A stretch of DNA of 13,484 nt. It comes from Candidatus Bathyarchaeum sp. Lineage in GTDB: Archaea; Thermoproteota; Bathyarchaeia; Bathyarchaeales; Bathyarchaeaceae. The stretch covers positions 1-13,484 of the forward strand of contig JAOZIF010000105.1 of assembly GCA_026014495.1 (NCBI GenBank), written 5' to 3'. The notes beneath the pieces are model-generated. The model was not told the origin of the DNA, searched no databases, and saw nothing but the letters and a program-made list of their open reading frames with translations. The first letter of the stretch is position 1. Every line of letters begins with the position of its first letter. The position numbers were made by a program, and so were the translations under genes. Below, in pieces: positions 117-8,528 of this stretch.

Positions 117-311
117 GTGTACGTTGGAGTGTGGGAAAATTTGGGAATATTGAAGCGAAAAACTTCGTCTAATCGGCGATGTATGGTTTGTAAAGAAGCT
201 ATTATTTCATCAAGACTTTATTGTGACCGACTTGGCGAATACGTGGACGATCTTGTTTACTGTCCATACTTTGAACCAAAACCCGTGGTTAAACTGCAGG
301 CTGTAATGTAG
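117..311 (+). CDS. Small Cys-rich putative metal-binding protein (C-x2-C-x10-C-x12-C); true start may be TTG at 141 or 150
   Basis: ORF encodes RRCMVCKEAIISSRLYCDRLGEYVDDLVYCPYFEP with four spaced Cys. GGAG at 126-129 precedes in-frame TTG codons. T-tracts follow the stop. No family recognised. Confidence 0.55.
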   Translation: MYVGVWENLGILKRKTSSNRRCMVCKEAIISSRLYCDRLGEYVDDLVYCPYFEPKPVVKLQAVM

Positions 312-420: not shown

Positions 421-436
421 CTCAAGACTTATTAAC
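421..436 (+). promoter_or_regulatory. Putative BRE/TATA promoter of the methanopterin biosynthesis operon
   Basis: ctcaagac-TTATTAAC (TATA-like at 429-436) is the best AT-rich TATA-like element upstream of the first operon gene. Confidence 0.5.
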
Positions 437-439
437 TAA

Positions 440-455
440 GTGAAAAAAATTACAC
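440..455. promoter_or_regulatory. Palindromic operator-like site GTGAAA-AAAA-TTACAC (copy 1)
   Basis: One mismatch from the perfect palindrome GTGTAA-N4-TTACAC. Lies 3 nt downstream of the TATA-like element. 15/16 identical to the site at 5302-5317 when both are read in their genes' direction. Confidence 0.65.
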
Positions 456-517
456 TCGGTTGAGATGTGCTGTGGCTGTACAAGAATCTACTCCTTTCAG
501 TTTAGTTTTGAGTTCTG

Positions 518-544
518 ACTTCCAAAGTTATGTTGTTTGGAGGT
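518..544 (+). promoter_or_regulatory. Predicted 5'-UTR hairpin sequestering the Shine-Dalgarno of the first operon gene
   Basis: ACUUCCAAA (518-526) pairs with UUUGGAGGU (536-544): 8 Watson-Crick pairs plus 1 G-U, with a 9-nt loop. The 3' arm contains GGAGGT of the RBS. Pairing done by eye. Confidence 0.35.
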
Positions 545-550
545 GCTCCA

Positions 551-1216
551 ATGACTGATTTATGTGATTTAGGATTTGTTAAAGATGCAATCGGAGAGAC
601 AATTGTTTCTACGTATACTTTGGATATGCAACCGACTGCTGCACCCATGGGTGTTGTGATAAAAAACAATAAGCAACTACTTGTTAGGCCATATGTTTCT
701 TCTTTAACTTACAAGAACCTTCAAGCATCACGATGTGCTGTGGTAAATGTTACATCAGACCCAGAATTGTTTTACCTGACCGCTTTCAAAGAAGCAAATT
801 CTGGCGGCAAACTGCCTTGTGGGTTTTTCGAAAAAGCAGAGAGTGTTGCTGCTCCAAGATTACGGACGGCAAATGCTGTTATTGAGGTGCTTGTTACGAA
901 AGTGGGTTCTTTTAATTCTGAAAGAGCAGAGTTTTTGTGTGATGCCCAGCTTGTTGCAGCATCAAAGGCGTTACCTACTGTGTATTGCAGGGCTCAGTTC
1001 GCGACAATTGAAGCAATAGTTCATGCTACCCGCATCAAGCCCTTTTTGAAAGGCAGTAAAGAAGAGCAAGAACGTGCGCTTAACCTATTAGAGTTGGTTA
1101 ATGTTTGCCAAGATGTTGTTGACCGTACAGCTCCTAATTCGCGTTACTCTGAACTTATGGCTGATTTAAGTCAAAGAATCAATTCATGGAGGAACCAAAG
1201 TGAAAGTTTACGTTAA
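551..1216 (+). CDS. DUF447 family protein (FMN-binding split-barrel-like), associated with methanopterin biosynthesis
   Basis: Motifs ETIVST..PTAAPMGV, TYKNL..AVVNVTSDPELF and RAQFATIEAIVHATR match my recollection of DUF447. Start moved from 530 to the in-frame ATG at 551 because GGAGGTG (539-545) lies 5 nt upstream. Confidence 0.85.
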   Translation: MTDLCDLGFVKDAIGETIVSTYTLDMQPTAAPMGVVIKNNKQLLVRPYVSSLTYKNLQASRCAVVNVTSDPELFYLTAFKEANSGGKLPCGFFEKAESVAAPRLRTANAVIEVLVTKVGSFNSERAEFLCDAQLVAASKALPTVYCRAQFATIEAIVHATRIKPFLKGSKEEQERALNLLELVNVCQDVVDRTAPNSRYSELMADLSQRINSWRNQSESLR

Positions 1217-2165
1217 AACTCCAGCAAGGCTGCATTTTGGTCTAATAGACCTTAATGGAGACATGGGACGATTCTTCGGAGGCTTAGGCGTAGGCATAGA
1301 CCAGCCAAATGTGGTTCTTGTGGCTCAAGTATCCGAAAGTTTTTCTGTTACCGGCAAAAAAACTGACTTAACATCATTGCTTGCTAAACGGTTTCTTGAA
1401 TCTTACAACATAAACGCCAACGTTAGCATCAATGTAAAACAGGTAATTCCTGAACATGCAGGACTAGGCTCTGGAACACAGTTGGCGTTGGCTGTAGCTG
1501 CAGCTCTTGCTAAACTGTTTCAGGTAAACGCTTCAACTCAAGAACTATCCCTTACCATGGGAAGAATGAAACGAACTGGAGTTGGCACCGCAATATTTGA
1601 GCACGGCGGCTTTGTTGTTGATGGCGGAAAAACAATGAAAGACGGAGTTGTGGTTCCCGAAAGTTTGCCTCCCCTGATTTTCCGTTACCCCTTCCCTGAG
1701 GACTGGAAATTTGTTGTTGCAATGCCTGACGTGAAAAAAGGACTAGCCAAAACTGAAGAGAAGACAGCTTTTGCTAGTGTGCCTCAGATGCCTGCTGAAC
1801 TTGTTGGCAGAATCTGCTGGTTGACAATGATGAAGTTGCTGCCTGCGTTAGTGGATTGTGACATCAAAAGTTTTGGTGATGCTTTAACCACAATTCAAGT
1901 AGTTGTTGGGGACTACTTTGCTGGTGTTCAAGGAGGAACCTTTTCCAGTTTGGCAGCTTCAGCAGGGATAGATTTCATGAAAGCATGTGGTGCCTATGGT
2001 GTAGGGCAGAGTTCTTGGGGACCTGCAGTTTATGGGCTAGTTCAAGGTGATACACAAGCAAAAAAACTTCACTCTGAAGTTGAAGCTTTCCTTCAAGACA
2101 ATGGGGGTGGACAAGTTTTTGTTGCCAACCCAAATAACAGTGGAGCCACAATAAAGCAGGTTTAA
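1200..2165 (+). CDS. mptG: Beta-ribofuranosylaminobenzene 5'-phosphate (RFA-P) synthase, GHMP-kinase fold
   Basis: TPARLHFGLIDL..GR.FGGLG, PEHAGLGSGTQLALA, GVG..IFEHGGFVVDGG and GQSSWGPAVY are the family motifs. GTG start with GGAGG at 1188-1192; overlaps the upstream gene by 17 nt. Confidence 0.93.
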   Translation: MKVYVKTPARLHFGLIDLNGDMGRFFGGLGVGIDQPNVVLVAQVSESFSVTGKKTDLTSLLAKRFLESYNINANVSINVKQVIPEHAGLGSGTQLALAVAAALAKLFQVNASTQELSLTMGRMKRTGVGTAIFEHGGFVVDGGKTMKDGVVVPESLPPLIFRYPFPEDWKFVVAMPDVKKGLAKTEEKTAFASVPQMPAELVGRICWLTMMKLLPALVDCDIKSFGDALTTIQVVVGDYFAGVQGGTFSSLAASAGIDFMKACGAYGVGQSSWGPAVYGLVQGDTQAKKLHSEVEAFLQDNGGGQVFVANPNNSGATIKQV

Positions 2166-2196
2166 CGTTAGATTCACTATAGATGGATGGTTGAGT

Positions 2197-2922
2197 ATGG
2201 CTGTGCAAATTGCTTGGGCGATAACTGGAGCTGGTCACTTCTTGGCGGAAACCTTTGAGTTAATGACCAAGTTAGCTAAAAACAACAAGATTACAGTAAC
2301 AACATACCTGTCTTCGGCGGGGGAACAGGTAGTGAAAATGTATGGGTTATGGAACAAATTTGAACAGATATCTTCTGGTGGTTATCTTCAAGAAATTTTT
2401 ACCGAAAACAACCAAGACTTAGGGTTCTCGCATGCAGGGCGATTCATTGTAGAACCGTACGCGTTGCTTGTTGTTTCTCCTGCGAGTGCAAATACAGTTG
2501 CAAAGATTGCATGTGGCATAGCTGATACCCTTGTGACTAACGTTGTTGCTCAGGCACAAAAAGGGGGCGTTCACGTTTATGTTGTGCCAACTGACCAAAA
2601 AGAAGGCTTTGTTGAGACTGTGCTGCCTTGTCGAGTTGACCGCGCAAGTTGTAAACAGTGTAGCCCCTGTTCTATAGTTGATGTTTGCCCAAATTCTGCT
2701 GTGCAACTCTTGGATGGTTTTCCAAAGATTAATTCAGTGTTATGTCAAGGCTGCGGTTTGTGCGTAACCTCTTGCCAGTTTGGAGCGGTCAAATTTGGCG
2801 AAAAAAAGAGAATTTGGATTAGAAGTGTTGACGCCCACAATGTTGATAAGTTGCGGTCTATGGCTAACTTGACTGTTTTGGAGCATCCACAACAAATACA
2901 AACAATAATTGCAAAACTATGA
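2197..2922 (+). CDS. dmrX: Dihydromethanopterin reductase-type iron-sulfur flavoprotein (archaeoflavoprotein AfpA/DmrX family)
   Basis: Flavoprotein motifs IAWAITGAGH and VSPASANTVAKIACGIADTLVTNVVAQAQKG, plus PTD. Inserted 2x[4Fe-4S] domain with CxxCxxCx5CP and CxxCxxCxxxC. Start at ATG 2197 or TTG 2191. Confidence 0.85.
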   Translation: MAVQIAWAITGAGHFLAETFELMTKLAKNNKITVTTYLSSAGEQVVKMYGLWNKFEQISSGGYLQEIFTENNQDLGFSHAGRFIVEPYALLVVSPASANTVAKIACGIADTLVTNVVAQAQKGGVHVYVVPTDQKEGFVETVLPCRVDRASCKQCSPCSIVDVCPNSAVQLLDGFPKINSVLCQGCGLCVTSCQFGAVKFGEKKRIWIRSVDAHNVDKLRSMANLTVLEHPQQIQTIIAKL

Positions 2923-2940
2923 ACAGATTAGGTGTTGCCC

Positions 2941-4503
2941 TTGAAGGTGTTGCTGATAACTGGAGTCCTTGCACAGGACATAGTGAAACGTTATGCCCAA
3001 CAAAGCAGCATAGAAACCAAAGTCCTTGCTTTACCTATTCAAGTTGCTGCGCTACTAAAAATGCCAAACATTGCACAAGAACTAAAAAACAGGAACATAA
3101 ACGGCTTTGACGCCATCTTGGTTCCCGGACTAATCCGTGGCGACACTTCAGTTATTGCAGCTGCTACACAAATTCCAACATTCAAAGGTCCAAGATACGC
3201 CGCTGATTTGCCTACCGTCTTGGATTCCATGGGCAAAGTTGAGCTTTCAACAGTAACACCTGCTTGTGATTTGCTCAGAGAAGAACTTCAACGAAAAGCA
3301 CTACAAGAACTGGAACTTGCAGAGAAAAACTGGAAAACATTACTAAACAACCCCGGAAACATGGCTATCAAAAACTTGGTTTTTGGCAAAGATTTTCCAA
3401 TGCGCGTTATGGCTGAAATCGTTGATGCTCCTTTGATGGAATCTGACGAAATTCAAAGACTTGCTAAACGTTACGTGGAGCATGGCGCAGACATTATCGA
3501 TGTTGGTATGATTGCAGGTGAACCCAGACCAGCAGATGCTAAACGTGCTGTTGAGGCAGTTAAGGCTGTTGTAGATGTGCCTGTCAGCATTGACACACTT
3601 GACCCTGTTGAAGCAAAAGCCGCCGTTTCTGCTGGCGCAGACTTAATCTTGAGTGTAGATGCTGGAAACGTTGAAGAGATTGCAGCTTTTGCTTCTGATG
3701 TGGCTGTGGTTGCTATTCCAACTAATCAGCGTGAAGGATACTTCCCCAAAGAAGTGGCTGAGCGCGTGGCTTTTCTTGAACAGATTATAGCCCGAGCCAG
3801 AGCGCTGGGAATAAAACAGATTTTGGCTGATTTGATTCTTGAGCCGTCAAATGTTTTGCGGTCGTTTATTGCTTTTGGTGAGTATGCAAAAAGAAACCCT
3901 GATGTTCCCCTGTTTATAGGTGCCACCAACTTCACGGAGTTGATAGATGCCGATTCTGTGGGCGTTAACGCGTTGCTTGCTTGTTTGTCGTCTGAGGTTG
4001 GAGTGAGCATATTGTTGGCTACCGAGAAAAGCTCCAAAGCAAAAGGGACAGTCAAAGAACTTGTTACTGCGTCTAAGATGATGTTTTTGGCTAAAAAGCG
4101 GGACTCTGTTCCTAAGAATCTTGGTTTAGACCTTCTTGTGTTAAAAGATAAACGGTTGCGTGCTGAACCTTACGACGCCAATGTTGAGTCAGATGCACAA
4201 CTAGTATATGCAGATGAAAATCTTAAACCCGAAGTTTTAGACGAAAAGGGAATCTTCAAAATCGCAGTGGACCACATTAGCGGAAACATTGTTGCTCTTC
4301 ATCTTGTTGACAACCAACAGGACAAGCCAACTGTTGTGGTTAAAGGCAAAACCGCCGAGAATGTGTATTCCAAAATTGAGGACCTTGGTTTGTTAACGCG
4401 ACTTGACCATGCTGCCTATTTGGGGCGTGAATTGGCAAAGGCTGAGGTTGCCTTGCTGACTGGAAAAGAGTACATCCAAGATAGCCCATTATTCAAGGCT
4501 TGA
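2941..4503 (+). CDS. Dihydropteroate synthase-like protein (MJ0107/TIGR00284-type; pterin-binding TIM barrel plus C-terminal DUF4346-like domain)
   Basis: N-terminal KVLLITG.LA and TFKGPRYAADLP; barrel motifs AEIVDAP, GADIIDVG and PVSIDT; C-terminal DHAAYLGRELAKAEVAL..GKEYIQD. Start probably TTG 2941 (AGGTG at 2930-2934) rather than GTG 2932. Confidence 0.88.
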   Translation: MKVLLITGVLAQDIVKRYAQQSSIETKVLALPIQVAALLKMPNIAQELKNRNINGFDAILVPGLIRGDTSVIAAATQIPTFKGPRYAADLPTVLDSMGKVELSTVTPACDLLREELQRKALQELELAEKNWKTLLNNPGNMAIKNLVFGKDFPMRVMAEIVDAPLMESDEIQRLAKRYVEHGADIIDVGMIAGEPRPADAKRAVEAVKAVVDVPVSIDTLDPVEAKAAVSAGADLILSVDAGNVEEIAAFASDVAVVAIPTNQREGYFPKEVAERVAFLEQIIARARALGIKQILADLILEPSNVLRSFIAFGEYAKRNPDVPLFIGATNFTELIDADSVGVNALLACLSSEVGVSILLATEKSSKAKGTVKELVTASKMMFLAKKRDSVPKNLGLDLLVLKDKRLRAEPYDANVESDAQLVYADENLKPEVLDEKGIFKIAVDHISGNIVALHLVDNQQDKPTVVVKGKTAENVYSKIEDLGLLTRLDHAAYLGRELAKAEVALLTGKEYIQDSPLFKA

Positions 4504-4507
4504 TTTG

Positions 4508-5275
4508 TTATTCTTCTGGAAGTAAGAACGTTTTTTTGAGGACTCTTAGTAGGGGGGTGCCAACTATTGTTGCTAATGCAATTAAGCCCAGCCTTTCTAC
4601 GGGGTATACAAGGAATATGCTTGGCCATATGAACATGTGATATGTTTCAAAAGATATTGAACCTAGGGGTTGAGCCATTATTGTTTCGAACAGCAGATTT
4701 CCCATTAAGTGCTGCATCATGGTTCCGATGAAAACTAGTAGTGCTATTCCTGTTGCGGTTTTTGTTGTGTTGTTTGTGGTTACCCAGTGGGCTGCTTTTC
4801 GTCCCAGTGGCGATATAAGAACTGCCAGTGCTACGATATGTAACCAAGCAAACGGAAGTGCGATTGTTGTCTCCCCTAAGGAGAAGTCTATGAGGACACT
4901 TGTGTTTGGGTGTATGAGAAACACTGCGAGCAAGGTGACATTTATTGCGATTACGTGTACCCATTTCTTTTTTATTAGTAATCCTAGCGATACTGCGCCT
5001 ATTGTGGCGGGTAGAAAGTCGAGGAACATGAATGAGACTGGTTTTCCCATTGCCATTGCTAAGAATGTGCCTATGGTTGTGCTTAAGCCGCCGATGTATG
5101 GTCCTAGTATGATTCCGTAGATGGGGGCGATGACGTCTGATAGTGAGAATGAAGCATTTGAGGCGCCTATCATTGGTACGGTGGGTATTATTCTGAGTAC
5201 GGCGTATAGAGCGGTGAATATTGCGACTAGTGCTATTGTTTTTGTGTTTGTGGCTTGTTTTAGTATGTTGCTCAA
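4508..5275 (-). CDS. ECF-type transporter substrate-binding (S) component-like membrane protein
   Basis: At least 6 hydrophobic segments. N-terminal helix IALVAIFTALYAVL contains AxxxA; then GIILGPYIGG...IG; late HLMGNLLF and ER motifs. TTG start with GAGG upstream. No ECF T or ATPase genes in the window. Confidence 0.72.
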   Translation of the reverse strand: MSNILKQATNTKTIALVAIFTALYAVLRIIPTVPMIGASNASFSLSDVIAPIYGIILGPYIGGLSTTIGTFLAMAMGKPVSFMFLDFLPATIGAVSLGLLIKKKWVHVIAINVTLLAVFLIHPNTSVLIDFSLGETTIALPFAWLHIVALAVLISPLGRKAAHWVTTNNTTKTATGIALLVFIGTMMQHLMGNLLFETIMAQPLGSISFETYHMFIWPSIFLVYPVERLGLIALATIVGTPLLRVLKKTFLLPEE

Positions 5276-5300
5276 TTGGTTTCCCTCATTTGTATGTCGT

Positions 5301-5318
5301 TGTGTAATTTTTTACACA
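5301..5318. promoter_or_regulatory. Perfect palindrome TGTGTAA-TTTT-TTACACA (operator-like, copy 2)
   Basis: 7-bp perfect arms with a 4-nt spacer, read directly. Lies between the TATA box (5333-5340) and the start codon (5275), over the expected transcription start. Confidence 0.7.
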
Positions 5319-5332
5319 GTGTATCTTTTGGT

Positions 5333-5348
5333 ATAATTAAGCTTTTTC
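5333..5348 (-). promoter_or_regulatory. BRE/TATA promoter of the S-component gene
   Basis: Minus strand reads GAAAAAGC-TTAATTAT, a purine-rich BRE followed by a TATA box. Confidence 0.65.
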
Positions 5349-5413
5349 CCAATAACTGTGTCAAAAAACAAGCAACTTCACAAAATACCTTGCTCTACAA
5401 AGGCACGGTATCT

Positions 5414-6440: not shown

Positions 6441-8528
6441 TTATTTTTCTACGTAAATTTGGCTTGCTCCCATCTCTTTTTCTACACGTATTACATGCTC
6501 TGCTTTTTCTGCGAAAGCTTCATTGTGCGTTACAGCGATTATTTGCTCGATAGACTTTAAGCGACTCACTGCTTCAGCCAATCGGTCCACGGAGCCGTCT
6601 TCTCTTCCCAGACTTTCTGTTGGTTCATCAAGCAAAAGCATGTAAAGTCCGTGACCTGTTCTGGATTGCATGATTAGTTGTCCTAGTCCTATGCGGTAAG
6701 CAAATGCGAGTAGTGTGCGTTCTCCGCCTGAAAGGTTTGTGACTTCTCGTTCGTAGCCTTCTTCGCTGGATACTGTTGGCGAGTATGTTTCGTCGATTTT
6801 AATGTTTAATGTGGGTCCTGTGTCTCCGACTAGGTTGTCTAGTGTTTGTTGAACTGTGATCTGCAGGTACGTGATGAATTCTTTTCTAAGTTTAGGCTGG
6901 ATGCTCCTGTATGCAACCCGTATGCCATCTATGATTCCAAGAAGCTTGTTTATCTTCTCTTTTCGTTCAATCTTGCTTTGAGCATTATCTAACCTTTCTT
7001 TTAGTTCATCTACACGTAAAGCAAGATCCTTTTTTTGGCGCAATAAATTCTCTAACTCGTGTTTAGCTTCAGAGTGCTTTGTGAAAGCATTGTCACGTAG
7101 TTTTCGTGCGCACTCAAGTTTCGTAACATCAAACTTGGATATTTCGTCCCGAGTTTCGTCAAGCTGCTTTTGGAGCATAGTTTCTTCTTGTTGTGCCTCT
7201 TCAAGTTGCTCAGAAATTTTGGTAGTTAATTCCTGTTTTTCTGTCACCTGCTTTTTGGTGTCTGCTATTCGGGGAATAATCTGCTGGAGATTCGAGACCG
7301 CATCATCGACGATGCTGTGGCGGCTGTTTAGTTTGTCAAAGTCTTTTTGCAGTTCTGTTAGCCTTTTTTTGTTTTCTGCTTGTTCTTTTTGCATGTTTTT
7401 CTTGAGGCTTTCTTTGTAGTCGCCAGTGAGGTCTTGAAGGCATCGGGGACACTTGCTTTCGGTTATTATGCCTGCAATTGTGTTCATGGACGCTTTCATT
7501 TCTCTTTTTATTGCTTCTTGTTCGCCGCCGATAGTTCGGATTTGCTCTTCGAGACCAAAAATGTGGTTCTTTAGTTCTTCAAACGTTTTATCTGAGCCTA
7601 ATCCTGCTTCTTGGAGCGCTTTTTGGTGTGAGCTTTTTTGTTTTTCAAGCTGTTCCAAAAGCTTGTTTGATTCATCAAGGCGCCTCTTGTTTGTTTGTTT
7701 TTGGTCTAAAAGTTCTGTTGTCCTTCTTTTGATGTTGGCGATGTTTGTTTGAATCTGAATCTTTTTTCTTTGTAATGCCTCTGTTGTTTTTCGCAGCTCT
7801 TCGAGGCTTTCAAGAGTGGCAGTTGCCTCTTTGAGAATTGTTTGTGTTTTTGCAACTTTTTTGTTCATAGTTTCAAGTTGACTTGCAACAGCAAGGCTTT
7901 CTTCAGCCGCTTTGTTGTAGTCGCCGTCAAGTTTGTTGATGCGAATCACGTCTGCGTCCCGTTCAAGGACACTTTTTTCGATTTCATATTCTCTTTCAAA
8001 CTGGTGCAAACCGCTCCATGCAACGTTGTAGTCGGAAAGCCCAAACAGCTTATCCAGTTTTGTTTGGCGTTGCCGAGGAGTTATGTCTAAAAGTTCTTTG
8101 AGGTACTCTTGGCGCACCCAAATGACTTCTCGGAAAATGTTTTTGTCCAGTCCAGTTAGCGCTTTTAGTTCCTCGGTAACTGCATCGTTTTTGTTGCCTG
8201 CAACCATTTTGCCGTCTCGATAAAACTTGAGGTGGTCAACATCTTGGCTGATGCCGTTTGCTTTTCTTTGGAGGACACGTTGAATCTTGTATTTTGTGTT
8301 ATTGTGAACAAAAACTGCTGTTACCTTTCCGTTTTCTGCGTCTTCTCTGAGCAGATAATCGTAGCTTCTGCCTAATGGGTCTCCAAAAAGAACAAAATCA
8401 AGAGCATACAAAACAGTTGACTTTCCTTGCCCTACACCCCCAACTAGACAGTTGAAGCCTTCACCAAAAGGCACAACTGTTTTGACGTGCGACCTGATGT
8501 TCTCTAACTGCATGGATTCAAGCTTCAA
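6441..8528 (-). CDS. rad50: Rad50 (SbcC-like) ABC ATPase of the Mre11-Rad50 DNA double-strand-break repair complex
   Basis: Walker A GGVGQGKST, Q-loop VRQE, coiled coils, central zinc hook CPRC (7440-7451), signature LSGGE, Walker B LLLDEPT and H-loop VTH. TTG start overlaps the mre11 stop (TTGA). Confidence 0.92.
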   Translation of the reverse strand: MKLESMQLENIRSHVKTVVPFGEGFNCLVGGVGQGKSTVLYALDFVLFGDPLGRSYDYLLREDAENGKVTAVFVHNNTKYKIQRVLQRKANGISQDVDHLKFYRDGKMVAGNKNDAVTEELKALTGLDKNIFREVIWVRQEYLKELLDITPRQRQTKLDKLFGLSDYNVAWSGLHQFEREYEIEKSVLERDADVIRINKLDGDYNKAAEESLAVASQLETMNKKVAKTQTILKEATATLESLEELRKTTEALQRKKIQIQTNIANIKRRTTELLDQKQTNKRRLDESNKLLEQLEKQKSSHQKALQEAGLGSDKTFEELKNHIFGLEEQIRTIGGEQEAIKREMKASMNTIAGIITESKCPRCLQDLTGDYKESLKKNMQKEQAENKKRLTELQKDFDKLNSRHSIVDDAVSNLQQIIPRIADTKKQVTEKQELTTKISEQLEEAQQEETMLQKQLDETRDEISKFDVTKLECARKLRDNAFTKHSEAKHELENLLRQKKDLALRVDELKERLDNAQSKIERKEKINKLLGIIDGIRVAYRSIQPKLRKEFITYLQITVQQTLDNLVGDTGPTLNIKIDETYSPTVSSEEGYEREVTNLSGGERTLLAFAYRIGLGQLIMQSRTGHGLYMLLLDEPTESLGREDGSVDRLAEAVSRLKSIEQIIAVTHNEAFAEKAEHVIRVEKEMGASQIYVEK

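Follow-up and report, generated by a model that had tools for sequence, protein, structure and literature searches.

What connects a methanopterin-type biosynthesis operon with a membrane protein gene that faces it on the opposite strand, when the two promoters carry almost the same 16-bp palindrome? The question is raised by a contig of Candidatus Bathyarchaeum sp. (JAOZIF010000105.1, assembly GCA_026014495.1), analyzed here over its whole length of 13,484 nt (the window; contig C142 of the source genome, G000). A four-gene operon that begins with a DUF447 gene there converges with a gene whose product resembles the S-component of energy-coupling factor (ECF) transporters (hereafter, the S-like protein), and one dyad lies upstream of each (O1 for the operon and O2 for the S-like gene; Table 1). 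This 16-base palindrome, which adjoins a TATA box, very probably serves as binding site for a regulator not found here, and the genes that it precedes form a previously undescribed cofactor regulon. The source genome comprises 2,190,950 bases (2.19 Mb) in 196 contigs and is 93% complete. It was compared with 40 relatives (labels G0xx), and the loose pattern GTGWAA-N4-TTWCAC was scanned over all 41 genomes. Gene calls are our own readings of open reading frames (ORFs), and any absence stated applies to the profiles employed and to genomes that are incomplete.

The two 16-mers on which the sequence-only reading of this locus had been built are present where it placed them and, each read in the direction of its gene, are identical at 15 of 16 positions. 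The dyad consensus is GTGTAAAAAATTACAC, with a core TGTAA-AAAA-TTACA. When one mismatch is allowed, the window contains three matches against 0.21 expected, and none of 200 shuffled sequences contained as many as three. The third of these (GTGAAAGCATTGTCAC, 7081-7096) falls within the Rad50 gene, departs from the loose pattern at one position, and has G/C in its spacer, so that it is taken as a chance occurrence. Genome-wide, the loose pattern has three matches in 2.19 Mb, far below background, and the two of this window are the only ones with a pure A/T spacer; the remaining match (C122:14337) lies inside a 759-aa pyrroloquinoline quinone (PQQ)-repeat ORF and was set aside. Each dyad follows a TATA-like element. 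At the operon this element is TTATTAAC, 3 nt ahead of O1, and its assignment as TATA box, together with a start at about 457-460, would follow from archaeal promoter geometry. At the S-like gene, a TATA-like TTAATTATA (5340-5332, minus strand) precedes O2 by 14 nt. The spacings given by the sequence-only reading hence hold for the first site and need correction by one nucleotide, from 15 to 14, for the second. The longer gap of the S-like promoter stems from an insert of about 11 nt seen only in G000, G010, G016, and G005, and the ATACAC that it holds in the window (5324-5319) is possibly the remnant of a second, abutting dyad.

Both dyads are conserved well beyond this genome. Orthologs of the S-like gene (49–78% identity) occur in 12 of the 40 relatives and orthologs of the DUF447 operon in 10, in the same genomes and on the same contig, convergent and about 4 kb apart, an arrangement also found on two metagenome contigs. 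As the sequence-only reading required for support, the dyad is retained upstream of these orthologs, without exception in the 12 S-like genes and the 10 operons, lying 38–51 nt before the start and after a conserved GAAAAGC-TTAATTATA block in the former, and 45–112 nt before the start and after the CTCAAGACTTATTAAT block in the latter. The block GAGTGWAAAAAATTACAYT at O1 is the most conserved stretch of the operon upstream alignment; the flanking DNA has diverged, and the regions further upstream of the promoters are not alignable. Among 47 dyad instances, 10 of the 16 positions are invariant. The BRE/TATA block (BRE, transcription factor B recognition element) is kept in all promoters of the S-like orthologs, while anything from 3 to 14 nt separates it from the dyad. 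Furthermore, in genus g16 of another family (f9) both outer positions of the dyad have changed together, giving TTGTAA..TTACAA, as expected when the specificity of a dimer shifts. The 14-base core yields 31 matches in the 34 genomes of the order, against six for a reversed control, and falls to control level elsewhere in the class. In two relatives (G009:C9:78900-80570 and G003:C4:700-5620), the DUF447, beta-RFAP (beta-ribofuranosylaminobenzene 5'-phosphate) synthase, and S-like genes are split by stop codons or frameshifts and the dyads are intact; the DUF447 operon appears to be decaying in some species.

The exact consensus recurs in the majority of the genomes of the genus, and several other families have it as well, including genomes that lack the operon, and the genes behind it define the regulon. 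All matches with an A/T spacer that were examined lie before the DUF447 operon, before S-like genes, before genes of the CitG family (Pfam CitG, about 250 bits), or before genes for paralogous S-like proteins, each of which is then followed by a gene for a DNA polymerase beta (pol-beta)-type nucleotidyltransferase of 300–350 aa. The latter bears a pol-beta nucleotidyltransferase signature, and its confident structural model (predicted local distance difference test, pLDDT, 93) consists of a pol-beta-like core, a C-terminal oligonucleotide/oligosaccharide-binding (OB) fold, and an unknown N-terminal domain, with no helix-turn-helix (HTH). In G026, G030, G032, and G040, a CitG-like gene and a divergent S-like or nucleotidyltransferase gene share an intergenic region that has just one TATA box and one dyad. 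In G000, a position weight matrix (PWM) scan located a variant dyad (C45:9692; outer G/C changed to A/T, and one change in the right arm) before an operon of an S-like and a nucleotidyltransferase gene, and no credible site beyond it. On a single contig of G038, genes for the dihydropteroate synthase (DHPS)-like protein, beta-RFAP synthase, PTPS, DUF1464, DmrX, an MptE-like protein, DUF447, the CitG-like enzyme, and the nucleotidyltransferase are gathered, the last three of them contiguous, and the regulon is hence methanopterin-related. The genes clustered in G038 are dispersed in the genus studied here and would be tied together there by the operator; G038 itself, like G025, G033, G034, and G035, represents families that have no dyad. 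In a separate region of G000 (C59:26238-32632), three OB-fold nucleotidyltransferase paralogs lie beside an ftr gene.

The promoters share a common layout. In the usual module, drawn with the A-run on the top strand, TATA box, 3 nt, and dyad follow one another, with S-like and operon genes 3' of the dyad; stand-alone CitG-like genes lie 5' of the module on the other strand, their promoters featuring a dyad upstream of the TATA box, on its BRE side and 3 nt away. The dyad lies 3 or 14 nt downstream of the TATA-like block in the window, and if the center of the TATA box is taken at about 26 nt before the predicted start, it extends from about -18 to -3 in the operon promoter and in most S-like ones, and about -4 to +12 where the 11-nt insert is present, as in the S-like promoter of the window. 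In some genes of a second S-like type (type B) the dyad ends 8–20 nt before the start codon. In three type-B promoters (L019, L024, and L025, from G014, G017, and G004), a separate TATA box is followed by two 16-bp dyads that directly adjoin one another, an arrangement that suggests cooperative binding of two dimers.

The best explanation for these observations, to which we assign a probability of about 0.72, is that a dimeric transcription factor, encoded elsewhere, uses the dyad as its operator on double-stranded DNA and ties the target genes together by repression. In the operon and S-like promoters the dyad fills the space from the TATA box to the predicted start or overlaps that start. 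With the dyad so close to the TATA box, on its BRE side at the CitG-like genes, occupancy by the factor would deny TBP/TFB or RNA polymerase access to the promoter and hence repress it. Binding between the TATA box and the start is the mode of several archaeal repressors (MDR1, LrpA, Phr, and the TrmB/TrmBL1 class), and the dyads resemble these in position, being directly behind or across the TATA box and a start that is here predicted, which would imply a block of polymerase recruitment. The operator would connect the DUF447/beta-RFAP synthase/DmrX/DHPS-like operon, the CitG-like enzyme, the nucleotidyltransferase, and one to three S-like proteins, which probably import the cofactor or a precursor, and the likely signal, a methanopterin-related metabolite, would strengthen binding at times of ample cofactor supply. 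The proposal that synthesis and uptake of the cofactor are coregulated is supported by what the comparison shows of the dyad, its rarity, conservation, and position, and the gene set behind it; the binding of a protein, a repressive mode, the nature of the effector, and the transported substrate are what we infer.

Several points weigh against this interpretation. The relatives are akin to each other and do not count as independent genomes, so that the counts given above overstate its support, and transcription starts are throughout predictions from archaeal promoter geometry. Of 38 S-like and operon promoters, 37 have the A-run of the AAAA center directed toward the gene, a polarity that a symmetric dimer does not need and that may come from common ancestry or from a contribution of the A-tract to the melting of the promoter. 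The CitG-like gene of G000 has lost its dyad, of which a decayed site remains. The mch and ftr genes of G000, which the sequence-only reading had named as possible targets, show no dyad in the PWM scan; the regulon does not cover these one-carbon (C1) enzymes and extends instead to the CitG-like, nucleotidyltransferase, and paralogous S-like genes. Lastly, no regulator gene was found beside the targets in G000, G005, G011, G024, G026, G038, G040, or the two metagenome contigs, and none was seen that carries a dyad of its own.

The window genes likewise include no recognizable regulator, in agreement with the earlier suggestion that the factor is encoded outside it. A 203-aa protein with a ribbon-helix-helix-like N-terminus, encoded on C138 behind a TATA box and a dyad-like site, was discarded as a candidate: it was not found in the dyad-holding genomes G024, G011, G013, and G020, and its site shows no conservation of the left arm. 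The nucleotidyltransferase was considered as a bifunctional regulator and rejected on its fold (no HTH; pol-beta-like core and OB fold). No Lrp gene adjoins any of the targets examined, and the only near-match next to an Lrp-family gene (C107:10404), situated 3' of a tandem AsnC gene, has two mismatches. The interest of that family lies in the form of its sites. The Ss-LrpB consensus TTGCAAAATTTGCAA is likewise a short palindrome with arms of 5–6 bp and an A+T-rich center, present as multiple adjacent sites in some promoters (PMC1802622), and the f9 variant TTGTAA-AAAA-TTACAA comes close to it; the dyad, however, spans 16 bp and not 15 bp and has an invariant AAAA center, and the likeness is one of form only. 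We treat the Lrp-type resemblance as a lead.

Among other readings of the dyad, a factor that acts as activator or dual regulator fares best, although we consider it rather improbable. In the dual form of this reading, the protein that represses from sites downstream of the TATA box would activate the CitG-like genes, where the site lies upstream. Archaeal regulators can switch between repression and activation according to the position of their site relative to the BRE and TATA box. The geometry of the CitG-like promoters does differ from that of the others, and archaeal regulators such as TrmBL1 are described as repressor or activator (PMC4706686). However, the gap of only 3 nt between dyad and TATA box at the CitG-like genes leaves no room for a BRE, so that occlusion would be likelier than recruitment there as well.

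A second reading, with still poorer prospects, assigns the dyad to the core promoter instead of to an operator: it would be a TATA-like box, symmetric and rich in A/T, with inverted BRE-like arms, which a particular TBP/TFB pair could use in both directions. The center TAAAAAAT is TATA-like, the dyad sits between divergent genes in four genomes, and distances of 30–43 nt from its center to the start codons of S-like genes would allow short leaders. However, a separate conserved BRE/TATA block (GAAAAGC-TTAATTATA or TAATCTTATATACC) is present upstream, the gap between block and dyad varies (3, 14, or 18–35 nt) while both remain conserved, some type-B dyads are too near to their start codons for a TATA box, and abutting double dyads occur.

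If the dyad is instead bound by a known protein, the most obvious candidate is RbkR, a fusion of a winged HTH domain and riboflavin kinase, in which case the S-like genes would encode riboflavin importers. RbkR is encoded in G000 next to ribL, the ribH and ribB genes were not found in that genome, and the S-like protein weakly passes the cut-off of the riboflavin S-component Pfam family. Furthermore, RbkR regulons include ribU and use palindromes that are lineage-specific (PMC5397151). The regulon described here resembles them in joining cofactor genes with an ECF S-component importer through lineage-specific promoter palindromes of 16–20 bp, probably bound by one dimeric regulator, and in having been found by comparative genomics (Rodionova et al., 2017; PMC5397151). 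It differs in its methanopterin-linked pathway, in half-site geometry, and in the persistence of the dyad where RbkR is missing: the closed, single-contig genome G024 keeps exact dyads at its CitG-like and S-like genes, and encodes only a 134-aa kinase-only homolog with no HTH fusion. G000 also possesses a far better RibU (C194:48732, 106.6 bits) that carries no dyad. The rbkR promoters of G005 and G016 bear CTAC-N10-GTAA, close to the published TTAC-N10-GTAA type, whose outward half-sites are 14 bp apart, unlike GTAA-N4-TTAC, and the targets cluster with tetrahydromethanopterin (H4MPT) genes, not with flavin genes. RbkR is hence an unlikely binder, less probable in our view than a core promoter function. 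With no ribH or ribB despite RbkR, RibL, and a good RibU, G000 is probably a riboflavin auxotroph. Two further observations concern RbkR and mch. In G000, TTACT-N8-AGTAA, which in Thermoplasmata is the RbkR-type consensus, is found 54 nt upstream of mch (C3:3851-3868); this pattern occurs at six sites genome-wide against about five expected, and the occurrence may be due to chance. A kinase-only RbkR paralog is encoded next to mch in G024, G013, and G020.

Least probable of all, and unlikely in any role, is an RNA hairpin at the 5' end of the transcript, such as a protein-binding or stability element: a stem of 6–7 bp with an AAAA loop could form, the arms are lengthened by further complementary bases at operon sites, and one G040 site has two G:T-type mismatches, but most promoters have their predicted start 3' of the dyad, CitG-like genes have the dyad ahead of their TATA box, folding would be weak (-3.8 and -6.0 kcal/mol), A:A (10) and A:C (7) make up most of the arm mismatches against 2 of G:T type, and an Rfam scan of the window gave no match at E<=1.

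The target set also bears on how these archaea obtain their cofactor. Mch was found in 38 of the 41 genomes, and beta-RFAP synthase above cut-off in only 13, the operon holders. The genomes without beta-RFAP synthase include the high-quality G024 (one contig), G013, G020, G026, and G032, and the dyads are kept at their CitG-like and S-like genes. The presence of Mch without beta-RFAP synthase in most genomes suggests salvage of the cofactor or of a precursor. On the other hand, haloarchaeal Mch homologs are thought to work with tetrahydrofolate (PMC8305020), and Mch alone is therefore no proof of methanopterin use. An MptE-like kinase, HPPK, an MptA/FolE2-type cyclohydrolase, and a DUF1464 gene were not found in G000 with the profiles used (genome 93% complete), and the pterin half of the molecule may hence be imported too. 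Tentatively, and with clearly less confidence than the operator itself commands, it can be proposed that most of the order imports methanopterin or a precursor through S-like proteins and relies on the CitG-like enzyme together with the OB-fold nucleotidyltransferase to finish or repair the side chain, all of this, and the early operon where it is present, being switched by one new cofactor-sensing repressor. The pairing of a CitG-family enzyme, often divergently from one promoter, with a protein of nucleotidyltransferase fold has a parallel in the CitG/CitX and MdcB/MdcG pairs of prosthetic-group synthesis for citrate lyase and malonate decarboxylase; the partner described here differs in combining a pol-beta-like core with an OB fold, in giving no CitX match, and in its company of H4MPT instead of citrate lyase genes.

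Should this proposal be correct, it would amount to the first description of a transporter for methanopterin and of a regulator that responds to it, and would assign two missing pathway steps. Several steps of the pathway still lack an assigned protein; an inventory of methanopterin biosynthesis from 2011 listed about seven unknown proteins (PMC3087415). Literature searches for a methanopterin regulator or transporter, for this motif, or for a link between ECF transport and methanopterin in Bathyarchaeia returned no description of any of them. The regulon is thus a new one of a familiar kind, with its regulator not found, and its sharply defined operator provides both a guilt-by-association list (CitG-like enzyme, OB-fold nucleotidyltransferase, DUF447, and S-like proteins) and a bait for the regulator. 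The distribution of Mch and beta-RFAP synthase also suggests that many Bathyarchaeia depend on neighbors for a central C1 cofactor or its precursors, which bears on the difficulty of culturing them.

The identity of the operon is supported by profile matches above curated cut-offs for three of its genes (TIGR00144, TIGR00284, and TIGR02700; Table 1). The beta-RFAP synthase, which catalyzes the committed step of methanopterin synthesis, remains below the cut-off of the equivalog NF040726 (237 against 328 bits). In methylotroph H4MPT islands, DUF447 (orf19), the DHPS-like gene (orf20), and afpA stand in one row, orf19-orf20-afpA (PMC3615186). The S-like protein is a weak S-component match: it passes the cut-off of PF07155 weakly, falls below that of PF12822 (28.9 against 30.7 bits), and has no NCBIfam match. 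An EcfT-family gene lies away from it at C194:28095-28745, and the S-like protein may use the module encoded there; mch, two ftr genes, and the EcfT gene are all on other contigs of G000.

Table 1. Genes and promoter elements of the operon and S-like loci in the window (positions in nt; sequences as read in the gene direction unless noted).
Feature	Position	Strand	Remarks
Conserved promoter block CTCAAGACTTATTAAT with TATA-like TTATTAAC (429-436)	421..439	+	Block conserved in relatives; 3 nt ahead of O1
Candidate operator dyad O1, GTGAAAAAAATTACAC	440..455	+	Upstream of DUF447 operon; A at position 4; extended palindrome 438-457
DUF447 protein, first operon gene	551..1216	+	Pfam DUF447_N 64 bits; ATG 551 preceded by GGAGGTG, alternative ATG 530
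Beta-RFAP synthase family protein	1200..2165	+	TIGR00144 202.6 bits, cut-off 113.5
Dihydromethanopterin reductase (acceptor), DmrX-type flavoprotein with 4Fe-4S domain	2191..2922	+	TIGR02700 275 bits, cut-off 251; Pfam Flavoprotein, Fer4
Dihydropteroate synthase-like protein (DUF6513 + Pterin_bind + DUF4346)	2932..4503	+	TIGR00284 385 bits, cut-off 257
ECF S-component-like membrane protein (type A)	4508..5275	-	Convergent with operon; PF07155 32.3 bits, cut-off 26.7
Candidate operator dyad O2, GTGTAATTTTTTACAC as read on +	5302..5317	-	Upstream of S-like gene; GTGTAAAAAATTACAC in gene direction, perfect consensus
14-nt spacer holding ATACAC (5324-5319)	5318..5331	-	Between TATA block and O2
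BRE/TATA block GGAAAAAGC-TTAATTATA of S-like promoter	5332..5349	-	Conserved in all orthologous promoters

The remaining genes of the window encode Rad50, Mre11, a CYTH protein, an EF-2-type GTPase, and small membrane or secreted proteins. The operon is preceded by the end of a small Cys-rich ORF (117-311, plus strand; 64 aa, C-x2-C ... C ... C), which has no family match and whose C-terminal part is also conserved ahead of the operons of G005, G016, and G009. A 17-codon upstream ORF (466-519) was dismissed, as it is not conserved in G021.

Three other dyad-like sites were rejected in the scans. The one at C174:20541 is an intra-operon junction without a left arm, that at G005:C1:1155648 has no gene in a fitting position, and that at C85:13433 is not conserved in relatives and lies within a dispersed repeat. 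Close to the latter, a non-coding stretch of about 280 nt (G000:C85:13466-13745; L134:1966-2245) occurs in one copy per genome, 82–93% identical within the genus and 70–80% within the order; it has no Rfam match at E<=0.1 and may be an unclassified structured RNA. The dispersed repeat itself, 30–60 nt long with TATTAG-N4-CTAATA (L134:1880-1940 and elsewhere), is present in 12 copies in G000 and 16 in G009, and is also found upstream of CitG-like genes.

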